Shown here one piece after another: positions 15,066 to 27,378 of a DNA stretch of 57,140 nucleotides. How positions within the stretch are numbered: position 1 is the first letter of the stretch; each line of letters begins with the position of its first letter. Origin of the DNA: a virus (taxonomy: Duplodnaviria > Caudoviricetes); the IMG/VR virus record IMGVR_UViG_3300024054_000020, positions 1 through 57,140 of that record; one strand, written 5' to 3'. A program made the translations under genes and the position numbers. Below the pieces are notes generated by a model. That model made no database searches. It saw only the letters and a list, made by a program, of their open reading frames with translations, and was not told the DNA's origin.

Positions 15066-15279
15066 TTATGACATTGAGATAAATGAAACCGTATTTAATG
15101 ATATGGTTGTGTGGGAAAGTAAAAATGAACCCAAAACATACTGGATAACATTCAAACGAATTAATTTTGATATTGATTTGATCGAAAGGTTTGATGGTGT
15201 TGTGATTAGTAACCTGGTTGGATTCTACGATGAAGTGACTAGAGGTAAATTCATAATGATGCATCGTTTGACAAAATAA
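15049..15279 (+). CDS. hypothetical protein
   Basis: ORF. Confidence 0.5.
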   Translation: MTTNSNYDIEINETVFNDMVVWESKNEPKTYWITFKRINFDIDLIERFDGVVISNLVGFYDEVTRGKFIMMHRLTK

Positions 15280-15356
15280 TTTTGAAAAATGTGTGTTTTA
15301 AGAGCCTAGTTTGCATATATATAATAATGGAAACAATTTTTAACACAGGAACAGTA

Positions 15357-15437
15357 ATGCAACATAAACCCTTTACATATAATTTAGCATCCGATTCAAT
15401 TCTAATGAATTGCGGATGGGAAGGCGCACCAGTGTAA
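15357..15437 (+). CDS. putative attenuator leader peptide MQHKPFTYNLASDSILMNCGWEGAPV
   Basis: AGGA RBS 6 nt upstream; 26 codons, 19 different amino acids; stop abuts the antiterminator strand. Confidence 0.7.
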   Translation: MQHKPFTYNLASDSILMNCGWEGAPV

Positions 15438-15505
15438 TCTAGGGGACTCGTGCAAAGGTTGTATAACACAGACCCCTAGACCAAAATCTAGGGGTTTTTG
15501 TTTTT
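15438..15505 (+). terminator. attenuator: mutually exclusive antiterminator / intrinsic terminator
   Basis: TCTAGGGG(15438-45) and TCTAGGGG(15487-94) both complement CCCCTAGA(15473-80); the second is followed by TTTTTGTTTTT. Confidence 0.8.
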
Positions 15506-15528
15506 GAATCAATGAATTACAATTTATA

Positions 15529-15557
15529 TTGACAATAAATTGAGATGTATGTAAAAT
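15529..15557 (+). promoter_or_regulatory. sigma70-type promoter at start of RNA island
   Basis: TTGACA-17 nt-TAAAAT. Confidence 0.7.
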
Positions 15558-15971: not shown

Positions 15972-16112
15972 AGAATGGGTACAGCAAATCACGTATATCC
16001 AGTGATAGTGGCAAACACCAAGTAAGTGTAGGTTGCTGACCATGCCACCAGCAAAAAAGTAGGTATTCGGTTGCTATGTCCGAAATAAATCAAAACGAGC
16101 AAAACCATTCTG
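15972..16112 (+). ncRNA. TACAGCAA-motif RNA copy 1
   Basis: AGAATGG..TACAGCAA...CCATTCTG closing stem; related copies at 19621 and 21811. Confidence 0.5.
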
Positions 16113-16400: not shown

Positions 16401-16476
16401 GCTCCGTAATACAAAGAGTCGAGTGACTAGCCCTTCAAGCTAGACCTAATGGGTTCGAGTCCCATACGGAGCTCCA
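16401..16476 (+). tRNA. tRNA-Glu(TTC), C at position 33
   Basis: Cloverleaf; loop CCTTCAA; encoded CCA. Confidence 0.8.
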
Positions 16477-16506
16477 AAAACAGCTAACCCATTTTGGGTA
16501 CTAAGT

Positions 16507-16581
16507 TGTGAGGTACCGTTCAAGGTGAGCCGGGTCTGCCTGTTAAGCAGAAATAGGTGGGTTCGATCCCCACCCTCACAG
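16507..16581 (+). tRNA. tRNA-Asn(GTT), no CCA, extended acceptor helix
   Basis: TCTGC-CTGTTAA-GCAGA anticodon arm; T-arm GTGGG-TTCGATC-CCCAC. Confidence 0.7.
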
Positions 16582-16716
16582 CTTAGTATCTAGTCAGAGT
16601 CAATTACTGAGAGAAGGCCAAACGCAGAGTTTCGAGCATGGGAGGTTGGTAATGCGCTCAGGACAGCTCGGCCCGTAGTTTTGACACAGAAGTTAACGGG
16701 CAATCTTAAATCCGAT

Positions 16717-16794
16717 GGTGCAATTGGTGTAGTGGCGCTGCATTTCGCTCTGTGAAAGCGAAGGTCCTCGGGTCGGAACCGGGATTGCACCCCA
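16717..16794 (+). tRNA. tRNA-His(GTG)
   Basis: G-1/C73; TCGCT-CTGTGAA-AGCGA; CCA. Confidence 0.85.
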
Positions 16795-16803
16795 AATAAT
16801 AAC

Positions 16804-16877
16804 GCGGGTATGGTATAGAGGTTGTGCCGTAGCCTTCCAAGCTTCAGAGGTCAGTTCAAGTCTGACTACCCGCTCCA
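16804..16877 (+). tRNA. tRNA-Gly(TCC)
   Basis: Cloverleaf, CCA. Confidence 0.9.
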
Positions 16878-16982
16878 TGAATATGAGATGAGCGTCCTAA
16901 TATCTGTCAGAATGTAGATTCACCATCGAATCCATTCTAGTCTCATTTCCGAAGACAGAATGATGAAGGGACAAAATACAAT

Positions 16983-17025
16983 GGGGGTGGGTCTGATTGC
17001 TGTCTGATCAGGTCCTACCCCACCA
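16983..17025 (+). ncRNA. CCA-terminated minihelix
   Basis: GGGGTGGG/CCTACCCC stem plus TCTGAT/ATCAGG, ending ACCA. Confidence 0.5.
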
Positions 17026-17033
17026 AACACAAT

Positions 17034-17109
17034 GGGCCATTAGTGATAGAAGGTAGCACACTGCACTTGCAATGCAGAAGAGACGGAGCGTTACCGTCAT
17101 GGTCCACCA
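17034..17109 (+). tRNA. tRNA-Ala(TGC)
   Basis: G3:U70; atypical T-loop AGCGTTA; CCA. Confidence 0.85.
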
Positions 17110-17116
17110 GTAATAA

Positions 17117-17193
17117 CGGTCATTCGCCTAGCTGGTATGGCACCTGATTTGGGATCAGGCATAACGCAAGTTCGAATCTTGCATGACCGACCA
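17117..17193 (+). tRNA. tRNA-Pro(TGG)
   Basis: Cloverleaf, CCA. Confidence 0.9.
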
Positions 17194-17199
17194 AATTTT

Positions 17200-17348
17200 A
17201 ATAACAGGGTTATGAGCCTCGATCATTGGGAGCGTCCGGACGCTCCCAGATAACATAGACACCTCCACGTACGGAGGATAACAGGCATGGATCGGATCGA
17301 TGAGTCGGCTACGAAAGATCGTAATGAGAACATTTTCTTCCCTGTTAC
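17200..17348 (+). ncRNA. duplicated ~145-nt structured RNA, copy 1
   Basis: Closed by TAACAGGG/CCCTGTTA; close copy at 17520. Confidence 0.55.
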
Positions 17349-17519
17349 CTATTTAACAATGTCCTGAAACATATTTTGGATTATGTTACGTCGGGAGACG
17401 ACAACTGAGATATGCGGATAAATGAGTAACGGGCGGTGCCAAAACAGTGCACCGAAAGTGCCGATAGGGCCGAAAGGTACGGCGGAGAACACGTTCCTGA
17501 GAAAATGGACAATAATTTC

Positions 17520-17664
17520 AATAACGGGGTTATGAGCCTCGATCATCAGGAGCGTTTTGGCTCCCATGATAACATGGACACCTCCACGAAGGAGGATAAA
17601 ACAGGCATGGATCGATGAGTCGGCTACGAAAGATCGTAATGAGAACATTTTCTTCCCTGTTATT
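17520..17664 (+). ncRNA. duplicated ~145-nt structured RNA, copy 2
   Basis: AATAACGGGG/CCCTGTTATT closing stem; shares most sequence with 17200 copy. Confidence 0.55.
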
Positions 17665-17673
17665 GTGTAATTC

Positions 17674-17756
17674 GCCTTCGTGGATAACGCAAATTGGTAC
17701 AGCATATGGACTTAAAATCCGTCCCATTGTCGGTTCGAATCCGACCGAAGGCACCA
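17674..17756 (+). tRNA. tRNA-Leu(TAA), short variable arm
   Basis: ATGGA-CTTAAAA-TCCGT; CCA. Confidence 0.8.
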
Positions 17757-17762
17757 ATTCAT

Positions 17763-17838
17763 CCTCGGGTAGCTGAGAGGTTCAAGCGTCGCCCTTACAA
17801 GACGAAGTATAGTGGTTCGAGTCCACTGCCGAGGACCA
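17763..17838 (+). tRNA. tRNA-Val(TAC)
   Basis: Cloverleaf, CCA. Confidence 0.8.
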
Positions 17839-17843
17839 AATAA

Positions 17844-17919
17844 CCTCACTAAACTAACCTAGTGGAAGTGCATGCCTGAAGAGCATGAAGGCTTGGAGCG
17901 TAACCAAGAGTGAGGACCA
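17844..17919 (+). tRNA. tRNA-Phe(GAA)
   Basis: CATGC-CTGAAGA-GCATG; atypical T-loop AGCGTAA; CCA. Confidence 0.75.
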
Positions 17920-18096
17920 ATCAATTTGTTTTCATAAATCAATGCTTCATGAACGGCGACAAGTTAGTGAAGACTTTTGCCGGTTCCTTCAGCAAGAGCG
18001 AATGGATTTTGCTGTAAATCCATGATTCGTAAAGCATTGTTTTATGGAAATAAACAGACCCCACTCTGCAGAGAAATTTGCAGGGTGGGATTTAAT

Positions 18097-18180
18097 GCCC
18101 CGGTGGTGTAATGGCAGCCACGCAAGTCTTAGGAACTTGTGCCTTCGGGCGTGTCGGTTCGAGTCCGACCTGGGGCACCA
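18097..18180 (+). tRNA. tRNA-Leu(TAG)
   Basis: Class II cloverleaf, CCA. Confidence 0.92.
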
Positions 18181-18187
18181 AAACAAT

Positions 18188-18262
18188 GGCGCCATAGTAT
18201 AGCGGTCTGTATATCGCTCTGTCACAGCGAAGGTCCGAGGTCAGCACTCGGTGGCGTCGCCA
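18188..18262 (+). tRNA. tRNA-Asp(GTC)
   Basis: TCGCT-CTGTCAC-AGCGA; atypical T-loop; GCCA. Confidence 0.8.
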
Positions 18263-18345
18263 AAACGTGCACCATGCATACAAATGAGTTCAATTCTCAA
18301 CCGCTGATCCTGGTTCTCTGGTGAGTCATGGTGCAATTTACAAAT

Positions 18346-18430
18346 GGTCACGATGCGAATGGAAAGCAAACACGCTTCGAACGTGTCGCCCTTAACTGGG
18401 TTGGGGGTTCGAGTCCTCTCGTGATCACCA
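18346..18430 (+). tRNA. tRNA-Arg(TCG), non-canonical, long variable arm
   Basis: ACACG-CTTCGAA-CGTGT; CCA. Confidence 0.7.
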
Positions 18431-18441
18431 TAAACAACAAT

Positions 18442-18534
18442 GGAGAAGTTAGCCGAGTCGGCCTAGCGGCAGCTGCCTTGAAAGCAGAAGACCCAGCAAT
18501 GGGTGTGTGAGTTCGAGTCTCACCTTCTCCGCCA
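18442..18534 (+). tRNA. tRNA-Ser(TGA)
   Basis: Class II cloverleaf, GCCA. Confidence 0.9.
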
Positions 18535-18539
18535 AATTT

Positions 18540-18718
18540 TGCATAAGGCTACTTCGACGCCAATCGTTGTAGCAGGTGAGATTGCCTCTGCGGTGAAGTT
18601 CTTGGCGGAACTTATTAACCGCAGTGAAACGTGTTGGTGTAACGGTAGCACACCCCCCCACCCGGGGGTGGAAAAGGTTCGATTCCTTACACGTGATTGC
18701 AGTCGGTAGCCTTATGTG
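18540..18718 (+). ncRNA. Y RNA (YrlA)-like candidate: long closing stem enclosing a tRNA-like domain
   Basis: CATAAGGCTAC/GTAGCCTTATG stem; D-arm GTGT-AACGGTA-GCAC and T-arm AAGG-TTCGATT-CCTT inside. Confidence 0.45.
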
Positions 18719-18765
18719 AAATTTGTCTAGTTGGTCTAGGAGATGGTAAATGTGAATAATACGAA

Positions 18766-18842
18766 GAGAAATTGGCCGAGTGGCTTAAGGCGTGGAGCTG
18801 CAACCTCCATTTTCATCAGTTCGAATCTGATATTTCTCTCCA
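18766..18842 (+). tRNA. tRNA-Cys(GCA)
   Basis: Cloverleaf, TCCA. Confidence 0.88.
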
Positions 18843-19486
18843 TATTGTTTAGAAAATAATGCAATTCTGAAATATAATTCAGAAATTGAAATAGTAGACT
18901 TGTTGTGTTTATGTTGATTTAATTTATGTGGTATTATTTCACAATTGGCAGGATGTGAAATAACATCAGGATCAATATTATTTTTGTATCCATCTGATAT
19001 AGAATATAAATGATCCCGGGAACAACCATTTAGATTATTTCCTCTGTTTGACGGAGAATACCAACCATAGCGTTCAATTAATGTTTTTGCTGTAGAAAAC
19101 CATTCGGGGAATTCCTTAATAGAAAATTTAAAAGTACACTCGTATCTATACTTATCTTTTGGGTTATTTTTTACACTGAATGGTTTTCTTGATTTTTGAC
19201 ACGAATGTCGTTTCCAATCTTGGATTCTTATCGTTTTTGCGCATCTTACACAAGAAAGTTTTATTTGATGAAAATATCTTGTATAACCTCGTACCTTATT
19301 TTTGTTTAGGTATTGAGCAGCACACGATAAACTACAAAATTTGTTATAGCACTTATTTCCGCAGCACAGACATAAATTTAAGGTTTGTTTTCGTTTGCAC
19401 TACTCTGAATCAAAATGTTTTTGAATATTAGAGGCATCTGTTGGTTGTTTGCATAAGATGCAGGTGCACTTTCTTGAACTAGTCAT
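18785..19486 (-). pseudogene. HNH-type homing endonuclease with Cys-rich N-terminus, interrupted by one in-frame TAG (codon 29)
   Basis: Manual translation MTSSRKCTCILC...FDSE*CKRK...FCSLSC...SRDHLYS...HPANCEIIPHKLNQHK; GAGGAG RBS; absent from ORF track. Confidence 0.75.
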
Positions 19487-19498
19487 GTTATCTCCTCG

Positions 19499-19506
19499 TA
19501 TAAATA
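19499..19506 (+). promoter_or_regulatory. T4-type late promoter
   Basis: TATAAATA. Confidence 0.4.
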
Positions 19507-19620
19507 TTTGCGAACCAGACAGCCATCACTCCTCGTGTGGTTGATGTTTCGCTCTAACGGAACATCTAATGGTTCATACTTATTTATGCAAATGGAGTTG
19601 CTAGACTCCACAGTTTAAAA

Positions 19621-19686
19621 AGAATGGTTACAGCAAATAAATTCTTTGATAGAGACCGAGGCTGTAGGCCTCGATATACCATTCTG
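19621..19686 (+). ncRNA. TACAGCAA-motif RNA copy 2
   Basis: AGAATGGT-TACAGCAA...ACCATTCTG. Confidence 0.5.
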
Positions 19687-19697
19687 AAATAATTATT

Positions 19698-19782
19698 GGG
19701 TCAGATGGGAGAATAGGTACTCCCACCAGTCTGTAAAACTGGCGCCTCGGCACTGCTGGTTCGAATCCAGCCTGACCCACCA
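19698..19782 (+). tRNA. tRNA-Tyr(GTA)
   Basis: Class II cloverleaf, CCA. Confidence 0.9.
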
Positions 19783-19791
19783 AAACATAAT

Positions 19792-19877
19792 CCTGCAGTG
19801 GCCGAATGGGTAGGCACCGTCTTGATAAGGCGTGATCGACAAGATCAAAGTTGGTTCGAGTCCAACTTGCAGGACCA
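19792..19877 (+). tRNA. tRNA-Ile(GAT), long variable arm
   Basis: Loop TTGATAA; V-arm GATC-GACAA-GATC; CCA. Confidence 0.8.
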
Positions 19878-19884
19878 AAACAAT

Positions 19885-19959
19885 GCTGCATTAGCACAGG
19901 GGTAGTGCAATCGCCTTGTAAGCGATAGGTCGTCTGTTCAAATCAGACATGCAGCACCA
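19885..19959 (+). tRNA. tRNA-Thr(TGT)
   Basis: Cloverleaf, CCA. Confidence 0.9.
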
Positions 19960-20021
19960 ATTTTAATTTTAAGGAGATGTTCAATCATGAAACAAAAATC
20001 TAAGGACCCAATGAAACGAAT

Positions 20022-20095
20022 GGGGGTATAGTTCAGTGGCAGAACATCTGGCTTTTAACCAGTCAACTCGAGTTCGATTCTCGGTGCCCCTACCA
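20022..20095 (+). tRNA. tRNA-Lys(TTT)
   Basis: Cloverleaf, CCA. Confidence 0.88.
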
Positions 20096-20138
20096 TCAAT
20101 TTTGATTATTGCATTTATGGAAGTGTCATAATCAAAAT

Positions 20139-20232
20139 AGTCCTGTAGTGTAATGGTAGCACGCGAGTCTTATAAGCTCGATTACCGCCAGATTAGCGGG
20201 TAGAGAAGGTTCGAATCCTTCCAGGACTACCA
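20139..20232 (+). tRNA. tRNA-Ile(TAT), long variable arm
   Basis: CGAGT-CTTATAA-GCTCG; CCA. Confidence 0.8.
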
Positions 20233-20237
20233 AAATT

Positions 20238-20316
20238 TGCGAAAGAGTGAAACGGATTAATCATACCTGTCTCATAAGCAGGAGATATCGGGTTCGACTC
20301 CCGTTTTTCGCAACCA
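20238..20316 (+). tRNA. tRNA-Met(CAT)
   Basis: CCTGT-CTCATAA-GCAGG; ACCA. Confidence 0.8.
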
Positions 20317-20411
20317 TATTACTCGAGAAAGAAAACAGTCTAACTGGGGGCACTGGTTTAGACATAAGAATGCGGTAAAAGTCCGAACAGGCGCTCACAG
20401 AATTTTAATAT

Positions 20412-20496
20412 GTCCCTTGTTCCAGACATCGGTCTTCTAAACCGATCCTTAGAGTTTGGCGGACGGCGTGGGGTTCAACTCCTCCAAGGGGCACCA
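20412..20496 (+). tRNA. non-canonical tRNA-Arg(TCT): no D-arm, enlarged variable region
   Basis: ATCGGT-CTTCTAA-ACCGAT; acceptor GTCCCTTG/CAAGGGGC; ACCA. Confidence 0.6.
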
Positions 20497-20508
20497 GAAA
20501 ATAAAAAT

Positions 20509-20583
20509 GCGGCATTAATTCAGCGGTAGAATGTTTCGTTGCCAACGAAAATGTCGTCGGTTCGATCCCGACATGCCGCTCCA
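20509..20583 (+). tRNA. tRNA-Gly(GCC)
   Basis: Cloverleaf, TCCA. Confidence 0.92.
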
Positions 20584-20591
20584 TTAACAAT

Positions 20592-20668
20592 CGCCATGAT
20601 GCCGAAGGAGCCGAGGCAACGGTCTTTGAAGCCGTCCGAAGTGGGTGCGAGTCCCACCATGGCTGCCA
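20592..20668 (+). tRNA. tRNA-Gln(TTG)
   Basis: ACGGT-CTTTGAA-GCCGT; 1-72 mismatch; GCCA. Confidence 0.8.
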
Positions 20669-20709
20669 ATTTGCAATTAAATGTAGCACAATGTAATATA
20701 AGTATTATG

Positions 20710-21613
20710 CAGCATGATGCCGATAATGCATCGCAAGATGCAAAAAGCTAGGAAGTACCTACTACACTAGCGCCTAGCAATAGGTCGATTCATGCAAGCC
20801 TAACCTCCCTGGTGACAGGGCAATCACTTACAAATGCGGTGGTTGTAATAGGAACGTGAATGGTGTGACAAGAACTTGTACTTAGACGCCGGCTTGTCCG
20901 GGAACGTCAGTACATGGAGAGTGCGAAAGCATAGACGGGTGGTGCCGATCTCACACTTAAACCAAATTCATCACCTATGAAGGTAAAAGGTAGGATTAAG
21001 CTCTGATCCAGCAAGAAAGGGGTTTAGTCCAGAATAATAGGTTGCGGTCAATGTCTGCAAGAAATGACATGCACGCCATCTAGAAATTCGGTTGAGTATG
21101 CGGCAGCAGAAAGACAGATCAAGAAGCGTATTTTGTTACTCAAAAGGTAATGAAGCGTTGAGTGCGCTCTTGATGTAGGTGCATATTAAGTTGATCAATG
21201 TAGATCAATCTCTATTTGAAGAGACTGTTGTTGGTTCAAGTCCAACCTTATTAAAAATGCAAAGTCGCACTCATAACAACATGACAAATAACCTAAACCA
21301 ATCCATCGAAAGATGAAGGTTGGCATACAAGGCTCGCAAGGCTAAGTGTGTTTAGTTGAGGTCGCATCTAGGGTGTAGCAGCCCGAACAGCCCGCAAGGT
21401 TGGGAGTAGATCAATACTAGAGTAATGTTGTTAGATCGTTGAAATGCCACAACGTTAAAAAGGCGGTTATGCAGTCAGACGATTTTGAATCGTGGATAAG
21501 TTCAGAACCCTGTACGCAATACAGTGGATAATGGAACTAAGGTGGCTGTGCTAATCATGTAATCTCAGTGATTAGGTTTTCAATGAATCTTCTTACGAGG
21601 GTTCATCGAAAAC
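20710..21613 (+). ncRNA. large structured ncRNA, GOLLD-like
   Basis: ~900 nt without a long ORF, many GNRA-capped hairpins (GCAA/GAAA), embedded tRNA-like arm set, located inside a phage tRNA array; family assignment from recall only. Confidence 0.6.
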
Positions 21614-21618
21614 ACAAT

Positions 21619-21701
21619 GCCCGGGTGGTGGAATTGGTAGACACACTGTCCTCAAAAGTCAGCGCGTAAGCATGTCGGTTCGAGTCCGACTTCGGGTACC
21701 A
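21619..21701 (+). tRNA. tRNA-Leu(CAA)
   Basis: Class II cloverleaf, CCA. Confidence 0.9.
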
Positions 21702-21709
21702 AGTACAAT

Positions 21710-21802
21710 GGTGGAATGGTCGAGATGGATTAAGACATCATCCTGCTAAGATGAAGAACCAAGAAATTGGTTCCGTGGGTTCGAATCCCACTTCCGCCGC
21801 CA
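21710..21802 (+). tRNA. tRNA-Ser(GCT)
   Basis: Class II cloverleaf, GCCA. Confidence 0.92.
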
Positions 21803-21810
21803 ACGATTAA

Positions 21811-21863
21811 AGGATGCCTACAGCAAACTAATTTTCTACTGTGGAAACCAAAAGTGCATCCTG
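21811..21863 (+). ncRNA. TACAGCAA-motif RNA copy 3
   Basis: AGGATGC-C-TACAGCAA...GCATCCTG; compensatory changes versus copies 1 and 2. Confidence 0.5.
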
Positions 21864-21871
21864 TCCCATTC

Positions 21872-21946
21872 GCTCCGTTAGCTTAACGGTAAAAGCAATT
21901 GTCTCTAAAACTTTTTACGTCAGTTCGATTCTGACACGGAGCGCCA
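21872..21946 (+). tRNA. putative amber suppressor tRNA (CTA)
   Basis: Loop CTCTAAA; perfect acceptor, D and T arms; anticodon stem has two U-U mismatches; GCCA. Confidence 0.7.
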
Positions 21947-21973
21947 AATTTTATCAACAAAAGGAGAAGCAAA

Positions 21974-22000
21974 ATGATGTAGATGCCCAAGCCACCTTAA
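21974..22000 (+). promoter_or_regulatory. mini-ORF with internal amber codon (M-M-*-M-P-K-P-P-stop)
   Basis: AAGGAG RBS at 21961; ATG ATG TAG ATG CCC AAG CCA CCT TAA. Confidence 0.5.
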
Positions 22001-22051
22001 ACTGTTTTGATGGAAACTAAAAACTATCATTTACAATTTAAGGAGAAAATC

Positions 22052-22369
22052 ATGGAACAAAAACAATTTCTAATTTCAAAAGAAGATTATTTAACAATCA
22101 AGGCAACCTGGAAAAAACAACCTAGAGAATCGTGGGAACACATTGTCTATAATATTCTTAGGTCAAAGGATCTTAAGAATGGTTTTACGGAAAAAACCAA
22201 AAATATCCAGGGTAATAATTCTTGGTACGCATACAATGAAGCAAAGAGGTATGCTATCAGGGTATGTTCTACATACAAGGATGGCGATTGGATGAAACGG
22301 TACGAGATCAATTTCAAGAACCATTTTGGAATTGATAAACCAGAAGGTTTCTTTAAGGATCTATCATGA
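22052..22369 (+). CDS. hypothetical protein
   Basis: AAGGAG RBS before ATG 22052. Confidence 0.7.
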   Translation: MEQKQFLISKEDYLTIKATWKKQPRESWEHIVYNILRSKDLKNGFTEKTKNIQGNNSWYAYNEAKRYAIRVCSTYKDGDWMKRYEINFKNHFGIDKPEGFFKDLS

Positions 22370-22671
22370 CTCCTTATTTGTATCTTTTCATTCGTGACGA
22401 TCTTTCGCATGCTCAGCAAATCATTCAGACTGCTCATGCAGTGGAAAAACTATTTCATAAGATTGAAATTCCTCTTAAGATGAGTCATGTAGTATTATTT
22501 TCTGCATCATCCGAAGAAGATCTGTTCATCGCCTCTGAATGGTTGAGTTTTCATGAAATTAGACATTCAATGTTTTTTGAACCAGATATTGGTGCATATA
22601 CGTCAATTGCAGTTGAACCATTAACTGGCGATAGAAGAAAGATAATGAAGAAGTTTAAAATGAAACGGTAA
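22366..22671 (+). CDS. peptidyl-tRNA hydrolase type 2 (Pth2)-like protein
   Basis: LYLFIRDDL...QTAHA...EPD...TSIAVEP pattern. Confidence 0.65.
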   Translation: MTPYLYLFIRDDLSHAQQIIQTAHAVEKLFHKIEIPLKMSHVVLFSASSEEDLFIASEWLSFHEIRHSMFFEPDIGAYTSIAVEPLTGDRRKIMKKFKMKR

Positions 22672-22750
22672 ATAGAGGAGCGGGGCTCCAAGCAATTTCG
22701 AAAATTGTTCCACCGAAAGGTTGATGGTTCGAGTCCATTATTTACCTCCA
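22667..22750 (+). tRNA. tRNA-Ser(CGA), divergent
   Basis: GGTAAAT/ATTTACC acceptor; GCAAT-TTCGAAA-ATTGT; V-arm; TCCA. Confidence 0.65.
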
Positions 22751-22841
22751 CGGCAAAAAGGAGGTCGGGGTGCCCACGCACCGCCGGATAAGAGTCAGAG
22801 TATAAACTGAGCCTCACGAATTCATAGCGTATTGGATAATA

Positions 22842-23105
22842 ATGGAATTAATCATAATTGTTACGGATGATGAAGGTTGCGTAATGACAGATGGAACCTT
22901 CATCCCACTTAAGCATAGAATAATTTATGATGGTCACTATTTTCATGGTGCTGAAAACCTTGTGCGATACATGCCGAATGCACAACAATTTTTAGAAATG
23001 ATAAGAATGAATATAAACGGTAACACTGGACGTTATCATTGGGCATGGGAACAGATGACAAATAGTAAATCTGGAACCGTCAAATTTGGAGAACAGAATG
23101 GGTAA
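22842..23105 (+). CDS. hypothetical protein
   Basis: ORF. Confidence 0.55.
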   Translation: MELIIIVTDDEGCVMTDGTFIPLKHRIIYDGHYFHGAENLVRYMPNAQQFLEMIRMNINGNTGRYHWAWEQMTNSKSGTVKFGEQNG

Positions 23106-23457
23106 AAAGAATTGCTGCGAGCATGGAACACAATTTAATCAGACATTAAAAAGATACGGCCTTTATAAATGTTTTTGTTGTAATTCTCAATATGAATATA
23201 ATGATAAAAGTGGGCTCTGTCCTGGTTGTAGAGGCGATATAAAAACTCAAAAGAAAATATTAAAAACTAAAGAAAAATTACATACTAAAATGGCGCAAAT
23301 AGAACAACAACTGTACAATTTGCGTAAAGACTGCACACACCCAAGAGTTATTAAGTCCGGTAATTCAGACATTGGTAATTGGTGCAGAGGTGATGACCGT
23401 TATTGGTATGATTTTGTGTGCCCAGACTGTGGCGCTAGATGGTCAGAGAATCAATAA
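23098..23457 (+). CDS. Cys-rich (zinc-binding) hypothetical protein
   Basis: Several CxxC pairs. Confidence 0.6.
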   Translation: MGKKNCCEHGTQFNQTLKRYGLYKCFCCNSQYEYNDKSGLCPGCRGDIKTQKKILKTKEKLHTKMAQIEQQLYNLRKDCTHPRVIKSGNSDIGNWCRGDDRYWYDFVCPDCGARWSENQ

Positions 23458-23921
23458 TGATTTACGTTGATATGGATGGTGTGCTTGTTGATTTTAACAA
23501 AAAAATCAAACAACTGTTTGACAAAAATTTCAAAGATTTAAACAATGATTGGATATGGAAGCGATTATCTCAACACCCAAATCTATATTTGGATTTGGAT
23601 CCAATGATTGATGCGTTTGATTTATGGTCTGAGATTAAACATTTAAACCCCCAAATTCTTACAGCTATTCCAAGCAAAGTTGATATGCCTAACGCTATGA
23701 GTGACAAAATAGAGTGGGTGAGGAATTATTTGGGTGCTGAATATAAAATTAATTTTGGTCCGCATTCTGTTGATAAACAAAAATGGTGTAATCCTGGTGA
23801 TGTTTTGATTGATGATAATTACTTAAATGTTTCCCAATGGAATGATAGAGGTGGAATTGGTATTCTCCATTCGACTGCTATTGGTACAATTAAACAACTA
23901 AAAACAAAAGGGATATTATAA
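23457..23921 (+). CDS. HAD-family 5'(3')-deoxyribonucleotidase
   Basis: IYVDMDGVLVDF, LIDD motifs. Confidence 0.85.
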   Translation: MIYVDMDGVLVDFNKKIKQLFDKNFKDLNNDWIWKRLSQHPNLYLDLDPMIDAFDLWSEIKHLNPQILTAIPSKVDMPNAMSDKIEWVRNYLGAEYKINFGPHSVDKQKWCNPGDVLIDDNYLNVSQWNDRGGIGILHSTAIGTIKQLKTKGIL

Positions 23922-23926
23922 AATAT

Positions 23927-24014
23927 GGAGAGTTCCCGTAGAGGCTATCGGAGCCGCCTGGAAAGCGGCGAACCAGTAATGGTTCCGTGGGTTCGAGTCC
24001 CACACTCTCCGCCA
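23927..24014 (+). tRNA. tRNA-Ser(GGA)
   Basis: Class II cloverleaf, GCCA. Confidence 0.9.
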
Positions 24015-24019
24015 AGACA

Positions 24020-24312
24020 AACTGGCGTTTGTAAAACGGCGTAAAACCTTAGTCAATAAGGGTTCTCTGGATTCGGCTATCGTATGCCGACACCTCCACC
24101 AAAAGTGTATTCATATTAGTACATTTTTGATGGGGGTGAAAGGATTCGACAGGGGATTAGATAGGACGAATGGCGCTCGTCAAGCACTGACGTAAAATAG
24201 AGCAAAATGTAATAAATGCAAATGATGCATATTTCGGAGAGATGCGCCTAGCAGCGTAATCACCGCGGGGTCTTCGGGGATTGTCCTTGTCAGCAAATCA
24301 ATCCCCATTTTT
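24020..24312 (+). ncRNA. ssrA: circularly permuted (two-piece) tmRNA
   Basis: Acceptor 3' strand CACCTCC-ACCA (ends 24101) precedes 5' end GGGGGTGAAAGGATTCGAC (24132); G3:U70; tag ANDAYFGEMRLAA* at 24218-24259. Confidence 0.88.
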
Positions 24313-24356
24313 AGTGTCTTTGGGTAAAGTTACTAAAAATTTAATAGGAGATTATC

Positions 24357-24710
24357 ATGAAAAGACGATTGAAACCAAAAAATTTTGGTGCAGTTGAATG
24401 TTATTCCTGTGGTGACATTGTTGATATTGGAAACGCCACACAAAGAAACATTAGTATCAATGTAGGTCATTCAGGACCATCAATTACTACAGGCAAGAAT
24501 TTTTTGGGCACATTAACAGGACACATTAAAGGTCCTTTGGACATTCGAGTAAATTCTGGGCGGCAATATTTTCGTAATAAAACAGTCTGGGTGTGCAACG
24601 AATGTTCTGACTTGGATCGAAAAGATTATTGGCGCAAGGTCAAATTGGTGTTTTTACTTTGTGTCGTATCATTCGTTGTAACTGTGTATCTGTTTTATAT
24701 TAAAGTTTAA
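24357..24710 (+). CDS. hypothetical protein with C-terminal TM helix
   Basis: AGGAG RBS; CxxC pairs. Confidence 0.65.
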   Translation: MKRRLKPKNFGAVECYSCGDIVDIGNATQRNISINVGHSGPSITTGKNFLGTLTGHIKGPLDIRVNSGRQYFRNKTVWVCNECSDLDRKDYWRKVKLVFLLCVVSFVVTVYLFYIKV

Positions 24711-24722
24711 CGACAACAAAAT

Positions 24723-24810
24723 GGGAGTTTAGTTTAATTGGCAAAACATTGGTCTCCAAAACCAAGGACAGATAATGCACGTGGGGGTTCGACTCCCTCA
24801 ACTCCCGCCA
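24723..24810 (+). tRNA. tRNA-Trp(CCA), enlarged variable region
   Basis: TTGGT-CTCCAAA-ACCAA; GCCA. Confidence 0.85.
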
Positions 24811-24822
24811 TATTAATATAAT

Positions 24823-24900
24823 GGATAGTAGTCGGGCAAGATGCAACGAGCTTCCCTCATAAAGAAGAACAGACTGGTTTGATCCCAGTACTATCCACCA
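24823..24900 (+). tRNA. tRNA-Met or Ile2 (CAT)
   Basis: Loop CTCATAA; GGATAGT/ACTATCC; CCA. Confidence 0.7.
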
Positions 24901-24905
24901 TAAAC

Positions 24906-24978
24906 ACCGTCGCCAATGGAATGGCGGTGTGCCTACGAAGCACGCAATGCGAGCGTTCGATTCGCTCCGACGGTACCA
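24906..24978 (+). tRNA. tRNA-Arg(ACG), lacks 8-9 connector
   Basis: GTGC-CTACGAA-GCAC; ACCGTCG/CGACGGT; ACCA. Confidence 0.7.
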
Positions 24979-24983
24979 CTTTT

Positions 24984-25059
24984 GCATCTGTGTAGTGAGA
25001 GGTTAGCTACTTCCGTGACAAGGAAGACTATACTGGTTCGAGTCCAGTCAGATGCACCA
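24984..25059 (+). tRNA. tRNA-Val(GAC)
   Basis: CTTCC-GTGACAA-GGAAG; CCA. Confidence 0.8.
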
Positions 25060-25075
25060 TTCATAGGAGATTGAT

Positions 25076-25282
25076 ATGTCTTATAAAGCAATATTAAGTG
25101 GCTTTGAAACTAAAGAGCAAGCCGAGAAATTCTTAGATTGGTTTGAGGGTCAAGGCGAACAAGATGACACTATTGGTGAATGGTTAGGTGATGGCATTAG
25201 TAGCATAACCTGTGATGTAAAAACAGGAATGATTGAACACGAGGATGGGTTTGAATATCGAGTAAAGATTTATAAGAATTAA
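25076..25282 (+). CDS. hypothetical protein
   Basis: AGGAG RBS. Confidence 0.65.
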   Translation: MSYKAILSGFETKEQAEKFLDWFEGQGEQDDTIGEWLGDGISSITCDVKTGMIEHEDGFEYRVKIYKN

Positions 25283-25550
25283 TCATCAAGTCTAACGCTG
25301 CTCTATATAGAGTAGAGGAAGTTCAGGACTTTCGTGAAAGACGAGTAGGAGAAGATATAGCTCGGGTAGCGTCACAATACGCGGACCCGATGAGGCTTCG
25401 CCAAACTACCGTGATATAGAAAGCAACACAAACAGAACTTGGGAATCTTTCACCTATAGGTTCGGGTTGTGGCAGCACTTAGTGTGCCAGTTTGTCAAAA
25501 ACTGAGATGAATGTTAGATTAGATACAGAATCCTGGCTATTAGATGATTA
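25280..25550 (+). ncRNA. rnpB: compact RNase P RNA
   Basis: CR-I GAGGAAGTTCAGGAC and CR-V ACAGAATCCTGGCTA form P4; P1 TAATCATC/GATGATTA; P2 TCTAAC/GTTAGA. Confidence 0.82.
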
Positions 25551-25556
25551 ACCGAT

Positions 25557-25630
25557 GCCTCTGTAAGTTAAAAGTAGACTACTTCTCCGGTAAAGAAGAA
25601 ACGGCGGAGCGTTACCGCCCTGAGGCACCA
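25557..25630 (+). tRNA. tRNA-Thr(GGT), C33, atypical T-loop
   Basis: CTTCT-CCGGTAA-AGAAG; CCA. Confidence 0.7.
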
Positions 25631-25652
25631 CTGATTAAATGAGAGGAACAAA

Positions 25653-25784
25653 ATGTATAGTTGGCCAACTTGGTTGTACAAAATTTGGGCGGCGTTTGTT
25701 ATCATAAATATTTTTCCTTTGATCGTGTTCGGAAGAATGTTTGAGTGGTTCATGAAAAGAATTGGGAAGGAATGGAAATATTAA
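25653..25784 (+). CDS. small hydrophobic protein (43 aa)
   Basis: GAGG RBS; MYSWPTWLYKIWAAFVIINIFPLIVFG... Confidence 0.5.
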   Translation: MYSWPTWLYKIWAAFVIINIFPLIVFGRMFEWFMKRIGKEWKY

Positions 25785-25786
25785 AT

Positions 25787-25862
25787 GGGAGTATCGTATA
25801 GTGGCTGATTACCTACGGCTCTTACCCGTATGACCAGAGTTCAATTCTCTGTGCTCCCACCA
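25787..25862 (+). tRNA. tRNA-Lys(CTT)
   Basis: TACGG-CTCTTAC-CCGTA; CCA. Confidence 0.88.
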
Positions 25863-25950
25863 GAATGAGTGAGAAATAACTATATCATGATTAATCCAAT
25901 GGACTTTAAATTTCGGATTGTTAGTCCATCAATCGTTAAAAGGAGGCATT

Positions 25951-26676
25951 ATGATGTATAACAACAAACTAGTAGCAACTATCAAAGTGGGCAACAAGGT
26001 ATTGAGAGAACAGGGAGATAAGGTGTTTATTCCCTGGAATTCTGAATACTCAATTTACCTAAAGAATCTGAATTCACAGAGAGCGTTAGTCCACGTCAGC
26101 ATAGATGGTGAGAACGTAACGTCGAATGGTTTGATTTTAGGCAATCACGAAAATTGTAATCTTGAGCGATTTATCAACGGAAACCTAAATAAAGGTCGAA
26201 AGTTCAAGTTCATTAAGCGAACCGAGGACATTGAATCCTTTAGAGGGGTGGGTGCCGAGGATGGTTTGGTAACTATCAAATATTCGTTTGAGAGATTGCA
26301 GGCAACATACATTCCGCCATATAAATGGCACAATCAGAGTCCGTATGATCCATGGCGTGGTCCTAATTGGTATGGAGAGACTCTATGCAACTCAACATTA
26401 GCAACCAATTCTGTTACAACCAGGTCAGTAAAAGGATTTGCAGACCCCGGAATAACAGTCAAAGGGTCCGAATCACGTCAAAAGTTTTCGGAAGGTAGCA
26501 TCGGTGAACTTGAGTGTTTAGAGTACGTTATAGTTCTGCAATTGGTTGGTATCAATGATACTAAACCAATCACAGTTAATCGGAAAAAGCTATGTCCTTC
26601 CTGTGGTAGAACTTATAAGTTTCGGGATGAATATTGTACCAAAGATGGAACATTTCTTGAACTAAGTCCTCGCTAA
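25951..26676 (+). CDS. conserved large-phage hypothetical protein with C-terminal zinc ribbon
   Basis: AGGAGG RBS; CPSCG...YC. Confidence 0.75.
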   Translation: MMYNNKLVATIKVGNKVLREQGDKVFIPWNSEYSIYLKNLNSQRALVHVSIDGENVTSNGLILGNHENCNLERFINGNLNKGRKFKFIKRTEDIESFRGVGAEDGLVTIKYSFERLQATYIPPYKWHNQSPYDPWRGPNWYGETLCNSTLATNSVTTRSVKGFADPGITVKGSESRQKFSEGSIGELECLEYVIVLQLVGINDTKPITVNRKKLCPSCGRTYKFRDEYCTKDGTFLELSPR

Positions 26677-26737
26677 TGGAGTAGCAGCAGGTTTCCTAAA
26701 CCAGCTTGTGGTGGTTCGATTCCGCCCGAGGACTCCA
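26666..26737 (+). tRNA. tRNA-Arg(CCT), reduced D-arm/connector
   Basis: Loop TTCCTAA; GTCCTCG/CGAGGAC; TCCA. Confidence 0.7.
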
Positions 26738-26871
26738 AATATTCGCCCAGGTTAATGGTCAAAATTCTGCCGGCAAACACACAATAACATACTAGCATGG
26801 TGAAGTCCAGGCGCACAATTTTCTATTTTGTGCGGGTATGTGGCGATATTAAATTAAATATGAGGGATAAA

Positions 26872-27231
26872 ATGACAAAATTAATTGCAATCATTCGCGG
26901 AAGAGAACTTCATGACTATGAAAGTTACAGTATGATTATCGAATCTATTACTGATTGGTCTGAAGTATCGGATGAAGATTATCAAATATTGAAACAACAC
27001 CAATATAATGGAGGAGATTTTACTATAATTGAGCGAATAGATTCTGAGGAATTCATTTCCAAAACCGTCGAAGACTATCTCAAGAAGGCAAGGAAATTAG
27101 AAGCGGCAAGGCTCAAAAAGATTAAGGAAAAAGAAAAAAATAAATTGCAGAAAGAGTTAAATAAAAAAGCCAGTACGGAGAAGGCTGAAAGACAACTGCT
27201 AGCTGAACTCACCGCAAAATATGCCTCTTAA
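26872..27231 (+). CDS. hypothetical coiled-coil protein
   Basis: ORF with GAGG RBS. Confidence 0.65.
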   Translation: MTKLIAIIRGRELHDYESYSMIIESITDWSEVSDEDYQILKQHQYNGGDFTIIERIDSEEFISKTVEDYLKKARKLEAARLKKIKEKEKNKLQKELNKKASTEKAERQLLAELTAKYAS

Positions 27232-27297
27232 GTATTGATAGTGATACGATGCCCTCGTAAAGCATAGAACCTGATGCAATTTCAGGAAGAGGCACCA
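27223..27297 (+). tRNA. tRNA-Thr(CGT)
   Basis: Loop CTCGTAA; T-loop TGCAATT; CCA. Confidence 0.72.
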
Positions 27298-27300
27298 TAC

Positions 27301-27378
27301 GCGAATGTGACGGGAATTGGTATACCTGTTTGAATGAGAGTCAAACGCCTGTCGGTTCGAGTCCGATCATTCGCACCA
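27301..27378 (+). tRNA. tRNA-Leu(GAG), short variable arm
   Basis: TTTGA-ATGAGAG-TCAAA; CCA. Confidence 0.75.

Follow-up and report, generated by a model that had tools for sequence, protein, structure and literature searches.

The closest described relatives of the element analyzed here are the trp, his, leu, phe, thr and ilv attenuators of enterobacteria. In these, a short open reading frame (ORF) lies ahead of an intrinsic terminator, the 5′ arm of that terminator has a second possible partner, an upstream segment that a ribosome standing at the stop codon would cover, a hairpin sits inside the ORF, and the leader codons match what the operon supplies. In known leaders of this class a single amino acid, or a related pair or trio (Thr and Ile in thr; Ile, Leu and Val in ilv), is repeated in runs. 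T-box riboswitches also couple tRNA charging to the choice between terminator and antiterminator in a 5′ leader, although a T-box works without translation, by direct binding of a single specific uncharged tRNA. In mycobacteria, leaderless polycysteine short ORFs are cysteine-responsive attenuators (bioRxiv 10.1101/834739); these resemble the phage element in being short regulatory ORFs on leaderless mRNAs in which stalling controls a downstream operon, but they respond to Cys only, belong to cellular operons and are apparently not tied to an intrinsic terminator. Stringent control of tRNA and rRNA operons by (p)ppGpp senses uncharged tRNA whatever its identity and feeds this back to the synthesis of stable RNA.

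The window is a 57,140-nt stretch of viral DNA, and when positions 15298-15505 are read in the context of these systems, they are likely to constitute a ribosome-mediated, leader-peptide transcription attenuator heading a phage tRNA array, a reading for which there is no expression, Term-seq or Ribo-seq evidence (Table 1). The enterobacterial likenesses listed above are all found, and membership of the class can be tested feature by feature. Ahead of the genes to be regulated, the window has a short ORF with its own transcript and a credible start site (ATG, AGGAA and a promoter-like site), an intrinsic terminator between that ORF and those genes (15470-15505), an antiterminator helix that uses the terminator's 5′ arm, and an antiterminator 5′ arm near a ribosome at the stop. 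In the window segment 2 starts just past the stop codon, much as in E. coli trpL, and the reach of the ribosome was judged with the footprint size familiar from ribosome structure. A run or excess of codons for one amino acid, by contrast, is found neither in the window leader nor in its relatives (family F1, below). The broader rule that leader codons match the operon's product appears to be kept, an inference from sequence alone, as the arrays cover up to 20 amino acids.

Table 1. Features of the putative attenuator and its inferred target in the window.
Feature	Position	Strand	Basis or remark
Sigma70-like promoter of the leader transcript (TTAAGA, 16 nt, TATAAT)	15298..15325	+	10/12 matches
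Shine-Dalgarno-like AGGAA	15347..15351	+	5 nt before ATG; read from sequence
Leader ORF, 26 codons + TAA	15357..15437	+	Sequence read; ATG 15357, TAA 15435-15437
Hairpin within ORF, 6 + 6 pairs, candidate RNA polymerase pause hairpin (pausing inferred)	15388..15418	+	Folding
Segment 2, TCTAGGGG, antiterminator 5′ arm	15438..15445	+	Begins at first base past stop codon
Segment 3, AGACCCCTAGA, pairs with either segment 2 or segment 4	15470..15480	+	Terminator scan, folds
Segment 4, TCTAGGGGTTT + T tract, intrinsic terminator 3′ arm and U tail	15487..15505	+	Terminator scan, folds
Second, stronger sigma70-like promoter (TTGACA, 17 nt, TAAAAT)	15529..15557	+	11/12 matches; context, outside the switch
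Inferred regulated target: tRNA array with GOLLD RNA and permuted tmRNA inside	16401..27378	+	ARAGORN, Rfam

There are also differences from the enterobacterial attenuators. The phage leaders use 19-20 different amino acids, with five of these occurring about once; the inferred targets are tRNAs rather than biosynthetic enzymes, and the owner of the element is a lytic T4-like phage. No segment 1 able to pair with segment 2 was found, and most F1 leaders look leaderless. Because the 1:2 pairing is missing, an untranslated leader should read through rather than super-attenuate. Stringent control acts in trans, via RelA and RNA polymerase, and lowers tRNA synthesis on starvation, whereas the phage element acts in cis and, as we read it, raises tRNA synthesis. 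No description of such an element was found in the full-text literature searched.

The first-pass annotation, made from the letters of the window only, had claimed an RBS-preceded ORF of 26 codons using 19 amino-acid types, with Arg missing and the first 13 residues all different. Reading the sequence confirms each of these points for the peptide MQHKPFTYNLASDSILMNCGWEGAPV, in which no residue occurs more than 3 times. None of the other ORFs among the 300 in the window that start with ATG and span 20-30 aa reaches 19 types, and the simulated probability of at least that number in 26 aa, given the window's own amino-acid frequencies, is 7.5e-4. Taken alone, the window ORF is weak evidence, as it is not significant once corrected for the ~300 small ORFs. 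The annotation had also taken the different codons used for repeated Ser, Leu, Gly and Pro as evidence, and this failed: the 23 distinct codons among 26 match the 23.2 +/- 1.1 obtained by synonymous resampling. The leader has one Val codon only, at its very end, and a ribosome stalled there would mask part of segment 2. Arg is absent from the leader, yet Arg tRNAs are encoded in the array. The hairpin within the ORF folds at -13.4 kcal/mol (z -3.8; 1/500 shuffles as low) and does not include segment 2. That the ORF is translated, and that polymerase pauses at this hairpin, are inferences.

The anatomy of the competing helices, which the annotation placed directly after the TAA with a U-tailed terminator, held on examination of 8-mer uniqueness, a terminator scan and folds. 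The 8-mer TCTAGGGG/CCCCTAGA has 3 copies in total on both strands of the window (0.62 expected), all of them here. Its complement CCCCTAGA, at 15473-15480, is the core of segment 3 and pairs with 15438-15445 in a fold truncated before segment 4, while the second TCTAGGGG copy, at 15487-15494, is followed by TTTTTGTTTTT. The terminator scan reports an 11-pair stem at 15470-15497 with 5 G-C pairs, a loop of 6 and the tail TTGTTTTTGA. The terminator (-16.2 kcal/mol, z -7.3) and the antiterminator (-15.4 kcal/mol, z -3.5) are thus near-equal competitors. When RNA extending as far as segment 3 was folded in simulation, the 2:3 helix formed with a ribosome placed mid-ORF, and placing the ribosome at the stop left segment 3 free. 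At equilibrium the full-length RNA adopts the terminator fold, and the switch must therefore be kinetic.

The -10 hexamer of the leader promoter ends 31 nt before the ATG. A homologous AT-rich -10 and 5′ UTR occur in G006, one of the other leader families described below, and an equivalent layout in two more (L239 and L213); AGGAA(A) or AGGAAG stands at the equivalent place in G006 and L239. The near-consensus promoter at 15529 sits past the terminator, with the first tRNA ~900 nt further on, and so readthrough in the window could only add to transcription of the array. The annotation had entered this promoter as a caveat, which holds for the window; in 34/73 relatives no such promoter is present.

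The array was claimed to hold ~38 tRNAs, a number that we correct to about 33: ARAGORN with default settings finds 28, and matches made by Rfam only, at 17034, 18346, 20239 and 20593 plus 16401, supply the remainder. The first tRNA (16401-16473) we take to be Glu-UUC, its anticodon having been read by eye. Rfam also identifies a GOLLD RNA and a permuted tmRNA in the window; the claimed RNase P RNA was not confirmed, there being no Rfam match to it in the window at gathering score. Nor did a T-box turn up at gathering score anywhere in the window, or under the looser limit of E up to 1 in 15200-16520, where the only Rfam matches are one tRNA and two weak microRNA chance matches.

The first-pass annotation had proposed that, if the reading were right, regions ahead of tRNA arrays in related phages would keep diverse short ORFs and 2:3/3:4 helices despite sequence divergence. 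This check came out positive, and it is the comparative evidence that carries our conclusion. The F1 search pattern fixes only segment 2 and segment 3 (the antiterminator stem). Scanning it against IMG/VR viral contigs gave 146 strand matches, 108 of which are followed by segment 4 and a T tract. At 105 of these 108 terminator-bearing sites there is an ATG ORF in fixed frame, which contains 20 amino-acid types in 92 cases and 19 in 13; the three exceptions are L125 (a 19-type ORF in a shifted frame), L186 (an internal stop) and L087 (cut by the locus end). An intrinsic terminator is found in 78/78 unique F1 sequences. The members are mutually related, so these counts are not independent events, and the antiterminator core, being fixed by the search pattern, cannot be counted as covariation; one antiterminator pair outside the pattern does covary (AU 42, GC 29).

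Linkage to tRNA arrays is shown by the same set. A tRNA lies 106-626 nt downstream in all 74 F1 leaders that have at least 1 kb of downstream sequence, and none of the 108 has a same-strand tRNA upstream. At least 19 tRNAs follow 41 of the 43 leaders with at least 4 kb downstream, and the arrays of 19/32 loci with at least 24 tRNAs cover all 20 amino acids. A promoter lies within 70 nt of the ATG in 57/73 F1 loci. Between terminator and first tRNA, a promoter-like site is present in 39 of the 73 unique loci and absent in 34, where the gap is 44-184 nt and mostly 44-76 nt. With no promoter-like site before the tRNAs in these 34 loci, the attenuator is the only visible gate there.

A mid-ORF hairpin is also kept in F1. 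Across 57 unique segments its mean energy is -7.6 kcal/mol, with z below -1 in 56/57, and it covaries: changes on both sides were counted in 36 cells, whereas shuffles gave 12.9 +/- 5.7 and none of the 500 was as high. RNAalifold predicted no consensus pairs for the whole F1 ORF alignment, and the hairpin's support consists only of per-sequence folds and a structure named by hand.

Selection for amino-acid completeness is shown by column shuffling of 73 aligned F1 peptides, 58 of which are complete against 9.3 +/- 2.5 expected (no more than 19 in any of 2000 shuffles). The positions of Cys, His, Tyr and Val vary among the peptides, and Asp, Trp, Tyr, Cys and His are each present roughly once per leader. 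As background, 20 types were reached at 25 of 8119 small-ORF stops in 1.2 Mb, and 12 of those 25 are leaders. The excess of distinct codons in F1 is modest (32.7 against 29.7 expected, with an excess in 64/66), and here too the members are related. Tuning of leader codons to phage-encoded anticodons was considered and rejected, as the value was 0.79 in leaders and 0.79 in ordinary phage genes, with the leader higher in 14/34 loci. A correspondence between the amino acid missing from a leader and a missing tRNA was likewise not seen in the 4 cases examined.

The design recurs beyond F1. Near a shared marker gene, 22 array starts were examined, and 14 have a small ORF with 19 or 20 types; two more such ORFs were found in further contigs. 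The other 8 array starts had no such ORF, nor did 3 sub-array starts of G009. All 20 types occur in L038/L053 (32 aa), L055 (42 aa), L245 (31 aa), G006 (40 aa) and G008 (49 aa), and 19 in G001 (30 aa), L213 (34 aa) and L239 (35 aa; its ORF starts at GTG). What the families have in common is the composition and length of the peptide and its placement with respect to the helices; the peptide sequences themselves are unrelated. Segments 2 and 3 differ in sequence between families yet stay complementary, and segment 2 either runs into the stop codon or lies next to it (in G001, G006, L038, L055 and F1 it takes in the last codons or the stop). G006 has its promoter and 5′ UTR in common with the window, but not its peptide.

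In a scan with a second pattern, an ORF of 18-20 types was found in every match that had a tRNA at most 600 nt downstream and full upstream sequence, and strand matches without such a tRNA never reached 18 types (at best 17 in 60 aa). In cellular genomes the F1 pattern gave 78 strand matches, and the sole terminator-bearing one is an F1 leader on a 2-kb contig; among the 77 without a terminator, 76 have no such ORF and 1 has a 19-type ORF (59 aa). Two cultured phages, KVP40 (at its array start) and Pseudomonas phage Milchi, have no leader, and when these two and 7 of the 8 array starts without an ORF, nine loci in all, were rescanned for GTG or TTG starts, nothing convincing appeared. A 39-codon, 20-type GTG ORF inside the KVP40 array was judged a chance occurrence: it lacks a Shine-Dalgarno sequence and a terminator and overlaps tRNA-like sequence.

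Searches for close relatives of the window itself returned little. Its own three-segment pattern has 0 matches in viral contigs, and the 76-aa neighbour upstream of the element has no relatives there. Synteny via QueD was tried and set aside, since relatives at 16 loci have other genes downstream. No DNA similarity to cultured phages was found for the window region or the F1 region, and tblastn with the F1 peptide gave chance matches only (E 2-4). Of 10 leader peptides looked up in a collection of 15 billion proteins, only one is there, and it is unnamed. Contigs from four DNA runs are at least 99% identical over the covered parts, leaving no variation to analyse, and no RNA run is listed among the sequencing runs that contain the window sequence.

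We suggest that the element would operate as follows. A transcript starting near 15332 would carry the 26-codon ORF. A ribosome reaching the stop would cover segment 2 (TCTAGGGG), leaving CCCCTAGA to pair with the TCTAGGGG of segment 4 in a U-tailed hairpin that ends transcription. If the ribosome were held at almost any earlier codon, or were not loaded, the 2:3 pairing would form first, no terminator would arise, and transcription would read through to the tRNAs. Nearly every amino acid is encoded once or a few times in the ORF, so that slowing at the codons of any one would be sensed. As charged tRNA accumulated, the leader would be translated faster and the switch would shut, giving negative feedback. 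The direction of this response and its physiological trigger are inferred. The tRNA-depletion reading put forward by the first-pass annotation is supported at the comparative level; for translation of the ORF and stall-dependent readthrough there is no evidence, and the link it drew to host tRNA nucleases remains conjecture.

The alternative that survives best, though we consider it very unlikely, is that the element is a translation-sensing attenuator whose output is not tRNA supply, and is instead a small RNA formed by the terminated leader, occlusion or timing of downstream promoters, or a readout of general ribosome availability. In its favour, 39/73 F1 loci and the window have their own promoters after the terminator, a conserved non-coding block follows the second promoter of the window, and attenuator-derived small RNAs are known in Sinorhizobium (PMC6614838). 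Against it stand the strict placement at array heads (74/74) and the 34/73 loci where 44-184 nt without a promoter-like site precede the first tRNA; moreover, a general ribosome sensor leaves the selection for all 20 amino acids unexplained. It is also highly improbable that the locus is a small protein gene whose peptide itself acts (for example on the ribosome, tRNA enzymes or host defence), the hairpins being merely its terminator and stabilising structure. This would account for the conserved F1 peptide blocks (HLPL, GW, TRPSF, AIE and GGFGK) and for the ORF being open in 105/108 sites. However, these blocks lie where the RNA forms helices (LPL..GW at the mid-ORF hairpin, GGFGK at segment 2), and peptides are unrelated between families that keep composition, length and helix-relative position. 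Searching 6 leaders against PHROG families gave one match only, at E 0.31, and none within the limit of E 0.1, and functional micro-proteins are not known to need every amino acid within 26-45 residues. The third alternative, in which a plain intrinsic terminator ends the gene block upstream, the ORF and the third 8-mer are there by chance and the array is driven solely by the 15529 promoter, can be all but dismissed: a window-like ORF is expected ~0.2 times among ~300 small ORFs, a strong promoter does follow the terminator and the full-length RNA does fold into it, but the three-part design recurs at array heads in unrelated families and at 105/108 F1 sites, the 8-mer is found nowhere else in the window, a dedicated promoter lies 31 nt before the ATG, and 34/73 relatives have no other promoter before the tRNAs.

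Returning to the attenuator reading, a bolder form of it is that a cis-acting sensor monitoring the decoding of all 20 amino acids, with the completeness of its leader kept by selection, is present in many uncultured T4-like phages and gates a full-set tRNA array on demand and in feedback; here the evidence tips only slightly in favour. If true, such a sensor would cover a host tRNA pool unfit for phage codon usage, a pool decaying after host shut-off, or a host tRNA nuclease removing any single species. It would be the first attenuator signalled by any amino acid and the first known regulatory logic for phage tRNA arrays, widening textbook attenuation from sensors of one amino acid to a general sensor. 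The reason for large tRNA arrays in phages, and the way they are controlled, are open questions, and a conserved all-amino-acid leader immediately before such arrays would show regulation by decoding speed. The design also suggests a compact genetic part reporting a shortage of any aminoacyl-tRNA, and provides an annotation signature, a short all-amino-acid ORF abutting alternative hairpins, that present gene callers miss.

As a separate observation, the conserved block that follows the second promoter of the window is non-coding and is not a tRNA; it has 0 matches in metagenome contigs, and among viral contigs it is found again on the G006 contig only.

The window is a 57 kb IMG/VR contig, about 32% complete, whose T4-like phage origin is indicated by family matches to baseplate hub/lysozyme, primase, ribonucleotide reductase and RNA ligase. 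At the head of its tRNA array, a short leader ORF is followed by segment 2 (the 5' arm of an antiterminator), segment 3 (a shared arm) and segment 4 (the 3' arm of a terminator), with the 2:3 and 3:4 helices in competition. No residue is repeated among the first 13 of the leader peptide, and it lacks Arg despite the Arg tRNAs in the array.

Features at the head of the tRNA array in the window
Feature	Position	Strand	Basis or remark
Promoter-like site, TTAAGA, 16 nt, TATAAT	ends 31 nt ahead of the leader ATG	+	promoter scan
SD-like AGGAA	5 nt ahead of the leader ATG	+	sequence reading
Leader ORF, 26 codons	15357-15437	+	peptide MQHKPFTYNLASDSILMNCGWEGAPV, 19 amino-acid types, Arg absent
Segment 2, TCTAGGGG	15438-15445	+	first bases 3' of TAA
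Terminator, 11 pairs	15470-15497	+	top-ranked of the region in terminator scan
Segment 3, CCCCTAGA	15473-15480	+	sequence reading
Segment 4, second TCTAGGGG then T tract	15487-15494	+	sequence reading
Second promoter-like site, 11/12 matches	15529-15557	+	promoter scan
First tRNA, which we take to be Glu-UUC	16401	+	anticodon identity is our own reading
End of tRNA array	27378	+	ARAGORN

The window holds 300 ATG-initiated ORFs of 20-30 aa, of which only the leader reaches 19 or more amino-acid types; under the window's amino-acid frequencies the probability of at least 19 types in 26 aa is 7.5e-4, and about 0.2 such ORFs are expected per 300. The 8-mer TCTAGGGG/CCCCTAGA occurs just three times in the window with both strands counted (0.62 expected), and at this rate the location of the third copy at the stop codon is also improbable. 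The codon diversity stressed in the first-pass annotation does not stand out here: the 23 distinct codons are present, but synonymous resampling gives 23.2 +/- 1.1. The window's element by itself exceeds chance only in part, and the argument therefore depends on its relatives.

No synteny could be obtained through the window's upstream genes. Relatives were instead collected using a DUF2828/DUF7788 protein (window 39712-41118), which lies beside tRNA arrays in many of them; 65 loci were fetched, arrays were located with ARAGORN, and the 1300 nt ahead of the first tRNA were read in the 22 loci with an array start inside the locus. At 14 of these 22 starts there is a small ATG ORF with 19 types (the window and contig G001, locus L025) or 20 types (loci L038, L053, L039, L048, L080, L044, L062, L063, L068, L070, L084 and L055), at a distance of 137-1070 nt ahead of the tRNAs. 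The other eight (L071, L035, L086, L083, L051, L041, L090 and L028) have no such ORF, and re-scanning seven of them for GTG/TTG starts changed nothing. Two more contigs, G006 and G008, carry such array-head ORFs, and none of the three sub-array starts of contig G009 does. Neither cultured phage inspected (KVP40, Milchi) has such a leader either. As a background, 20 types are found at 25 of 8119 small-ORF stops (20-45 aa) on both strands of 1.2 Mb of first-set loci, and 12 of these 25 are the leaders.

Many relatives belong to a large family, F1, that has common segment sequences and differs from the window's leader. F1 ORFs end in ...GGG GGT TTT GGN AAG (stop), with CCAAAACCC about 25-35 nt past the stop, then a loop, GGGTTTT and a T tract. 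Viral contigs were scanned for GGGTTTTGGNAAG followed 20-50 nt later by CCAAAACCC, a pattern that constrains segments 2 and 3 only and is silent on the remaining ORF, the terminator and tRNAs; 112 stretches matched. Over all collected loci it gave 146 strand hits, 108 of them with segment 4 and a T tract within 40 nt, and at 105 of the 108 there is a fixed-frame ATG ORF with 20 (92) or 19 (13) types. Of the remaining three, L125 has its 19-type ORF in a different frame, L186 is interrupted by a stop and L087 is truncated by the locus end; most of the other 38 strand hits are this palindromic stem read on the opposite strand, and three of the 38 are truncated at the locus end. With long N-terminal extensions trimmed, the 72 unique true F1 peptides divide into 58 with 20 types and 14 with 19. 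F1 was not found in cultured phages. The check proposed in the first-pass annotation, that diverse short ORFs should recur at related array heads, was thus met in the 14 of 22 starts, in G006 and G008, and in F1.

When the columns of the F1 peptide alignment were shuffled 2000 times with each column's composition preserved, 9.3 +/- 2.5 complete peptides resulted (maximum 19), against 58 of 73 observed (one of the 73 rows is a reverse-strand artefact). Each peptide has roughly one Asp, Trp, Tyr, Cys and His, and the positions of Cys, His, Tyr and Val vary among members. F1 members are related and do not represent 72 independent events; many residue relocations are still required. More telling is that completeness is kept in families whose peptides are unrelated and whose helices differ in sequence. 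G006 has its -10 region, 5' UTR and SD in common with the window and a different peptide, while the L239 peptide has HKPF and an NC..W stretch in common with that of the window.

Leaders outside F1, named by locus (L) or contig (G), with the chance probability for a single ORF
Leader	Amino-acid types	Length (aa)	Single-ORF P
L038/L053	20	32	6e-4
L245	20	31	4e-4
G001	19	30	5e-3
L213	19	34	
L239 (GTG start)	19	35	
G006	20	40	
G008	20	49	
L055	20	42	

A second scan used a plain hairpin, GGGTCTTGT ... ACAAGACCC, and matched 36 stretches. Where the upstream sequence is complete and a tRNA follows within 600 nt, every hit carries a U-tailed second helix and an 18-20-type ORF (that of L239 having the GTG start), and strand hits without a tRNA within that distance have no ORF above 17 types. 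As a control, the F1 pattern matched 51 stretches (78 strand hits) in 185,579 cellular genomes; the sole terminator-bearing hit is itself an F1 leader, on a 2-kb metagenome-bin contig (L292), and just one of the 77 hits without a terminator has a 19-type ORF (59 aa). L292 (2,154 nt), from a bin labelled Candidatus Saccharibacteria, holds a terminator and a complete leader of 43 aa and 20 types, and is most likely a phage fragment that was binned with bacterial sequence.

Folding predictions for the window give -15.4 kcal/mol for the antiterminator (15438-15480, z -3.5), -16.2 kcal/mol for the terminator (z -7.3) and -13.4 kcal/mol for a hairpin within the ORF (15388-15418, z -3.8). The full-length leader RNA adopts the terminator; RNA ending at segment 3 with a ribosome mid-ORF is predicted to form the 2:3 helix, and a ribosome placed at the stop is predicted to leave segment 3 single-stranded. 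This modeled behavior matches the requirements of a kinetic switch. In all families the terminator 5' arm can pair with a segment overlapping the last codons or the stop, the window being a variant in which that segment begins directly 3' of the stop rather than overlapping it. The core of the F1 2:3 helix was set by the search pattern and cannot be counted as evidence; one extra pair outside the pattern covaries (AU 42, GC 29), and segment 4, which the pattern left free, is found in 78 of 78 unique sequences.

Each of the 57 unique F1 segments contains a mid-ORF hairpin, with a mean energy of -7.6 kcal/mol (z < -1 in 56 and < -2 in 40), and an equivalent is seen in the window. The arms of the F1 hairpin change together (CCGTT/AACGG, CCACT/AGTGG, CCATT/AATGG). 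In this structure, which we specified ourselves, 88% of cells pair and 36 changed on both sides, against 12.9 +/- 5.7 after shuffling (0 of 500 shuffles as high); RNAalifold on the whole F1 ORF alignment predicted no structure. By analogy with the trp and his leaders, the hairpin may be a pause site giving the ribosome time to catch up. About 10-14 nt 3' of it in F1 alignment A2/A4 is a block, CACGCCCA, whose near-invariance extends to synonymous sites, suggesting a constraint on RNA or DNA and not on peptide; it is possibly the pause site itself.

In F1 all 20 amino acids are encoded before segment 2, through the single Asp codon inclusive, the first base of which is 8 nt ahead of the invariant GGGTTTTGG. 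For a ribosome whose A site holds this Asp codon, the stretch would start at about +11 of the P site, close to the point of mRNA entry expected from ribosome structure. In the window, TAA in the A site would put most of TCTAGGGG under the ribosome and stalling at codons 2-25 would leave it uncovered, the final codon (the sole Val) being borderline.

Linkage to tRNA genes is consistent in F1. A tRNA lies 106-626 nt downstream of each of the 74 leaders that are followed by 1 kb or more of sequence (tRNA-Gln in 72), and none of the 108 has a same-strand tRNA upstream within its locus. There are 19-32 tRNAs in 41 of 43 loci with at least 4 kb downstream, and all 20 amino acids are covered in 19 of 32 loci having at least 24 tRNAs. 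Of the 73 unique loci, 57 have a promoter no more than 70 nt from the leader ATG. In 34 of the 73 no promoter-like site (at least 10 of 12 matches) lies between terminator and first tRNA (gap mostly 44-76 nt), and the attenuator is therefore the sole visible entry to the array. The other 39, like the window, have one to three such sites, and there readthrough would top up a constitutive level. The -10 hexamer ends 6-7 nt ahead of the ATG in 44 of the 73 (e.g. L068 2040-2070, L084 1845-1873), which suggests leaderless mRNAs starting at or beside the start codon; the window leader, unlike these, has a 5' UTR with an SD.

The window element meets the structural criteria of enterobacterial leader-peptide attenuators as regards the ORF, the terminator, the alternative helix and the closeness of segment 2 to the stop, while pausing at the mid-ORF hairpin is inferred. 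It lacks their defining codon excess for one amino acid, having instead one of each, which fits an operon supplying tRNAs for all amino acids. The T-box family has no Rfam match in the window at the gathering score, or at E up to 1 in 15200-16520, and the element is accordingly not classed as a T-box. Full-text literature searches, which left out subscription journals and supplements, returned neither a leader ORF with all amino acids nor an attenuator ahead of tRNA genes in phages. Of ten leader peptides looked up in a collection of 15 billion proteins, nine had no entry and the other is unnamed. The 19-type ORF, alternative helices and terminator reported in the first-pass annotation are confirmed, and its reading as a translation-sensing attenuator is supported by the comparative data. 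We consider such an attenuator, with selected amino-acid completeness, likely; the mechanism is inferred, without expression data for the window. Codon mismatch, host shut-off and tRNA-cleaving defences are possible triggers, and the choice among them is not settled.

Leader codons match phage-encoded anticodons no better than ordinary phage genes do, and amino acids missing from leaders do not correspond to missing tRNAs in the four cases examined. The 66 unique F1 leaders for which at least 1000 reference codons were available use 32.7 distinct codons against 29.7 by synonymous resampling from the same phage's usage, higher in 64 of 66; this may hint at sampling of several isoacceptors, with the reservation that these leaders share ancestry and that the RNA helices also limit codon choice.

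Within the array are a GOLLD RNA (RF02032, 21116-21571, 175.8 bits, full-length), in which ARAGORN calls an odd tRNA-like element with a two-base anticodon (21184-21254), and a permuted tmRNA (RF04321, 99.5 bits) and a CUA-anticodon tRNA at 24038-24259 and 21872-21946; the latter, labelled Pyl by ARAGORN, is likely an amber suppressor. RNase P RNA, also placed in the array by the first-pass annotation, is not found in the window at the Rfam gathering score. Long tRNA genes at 19792-19877 (Ile, 86 nt), 20139-20232 (Ile-like UAU, 94 nt) and 24723-24810 (Trp, 88 nt) may contain introns or long insertions. A non-coding stretch of ~230 nt (about 15600-15830), 3' of the 15529 promoter and reaching a terminator-like site at 15876-15893, shares conserved blocks with G006 in the same place (L092 about 1680-1850); it matches no Rfam family, pattern scans returned no other contig, and it could be an unknown small RNA produced ahead of the tRNAs. 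The DUF2828/DUF7788 protein falls in PHROG 850 ('RNA-binding protein'), and one phage record labels it Ro sixty-related; it adjoins or sits inside tRNA arrays in most relatives (loci L026-L090), and in the window an RNA ligase gene (38000-39052) is nearby. Lake-water metagenome runs X1, X3, X4 and X5, from several studies and years, contain contigs at least 99% identical to window 15200-16500 that differ only at 16395 (C>T), and the phage therefore recurs.
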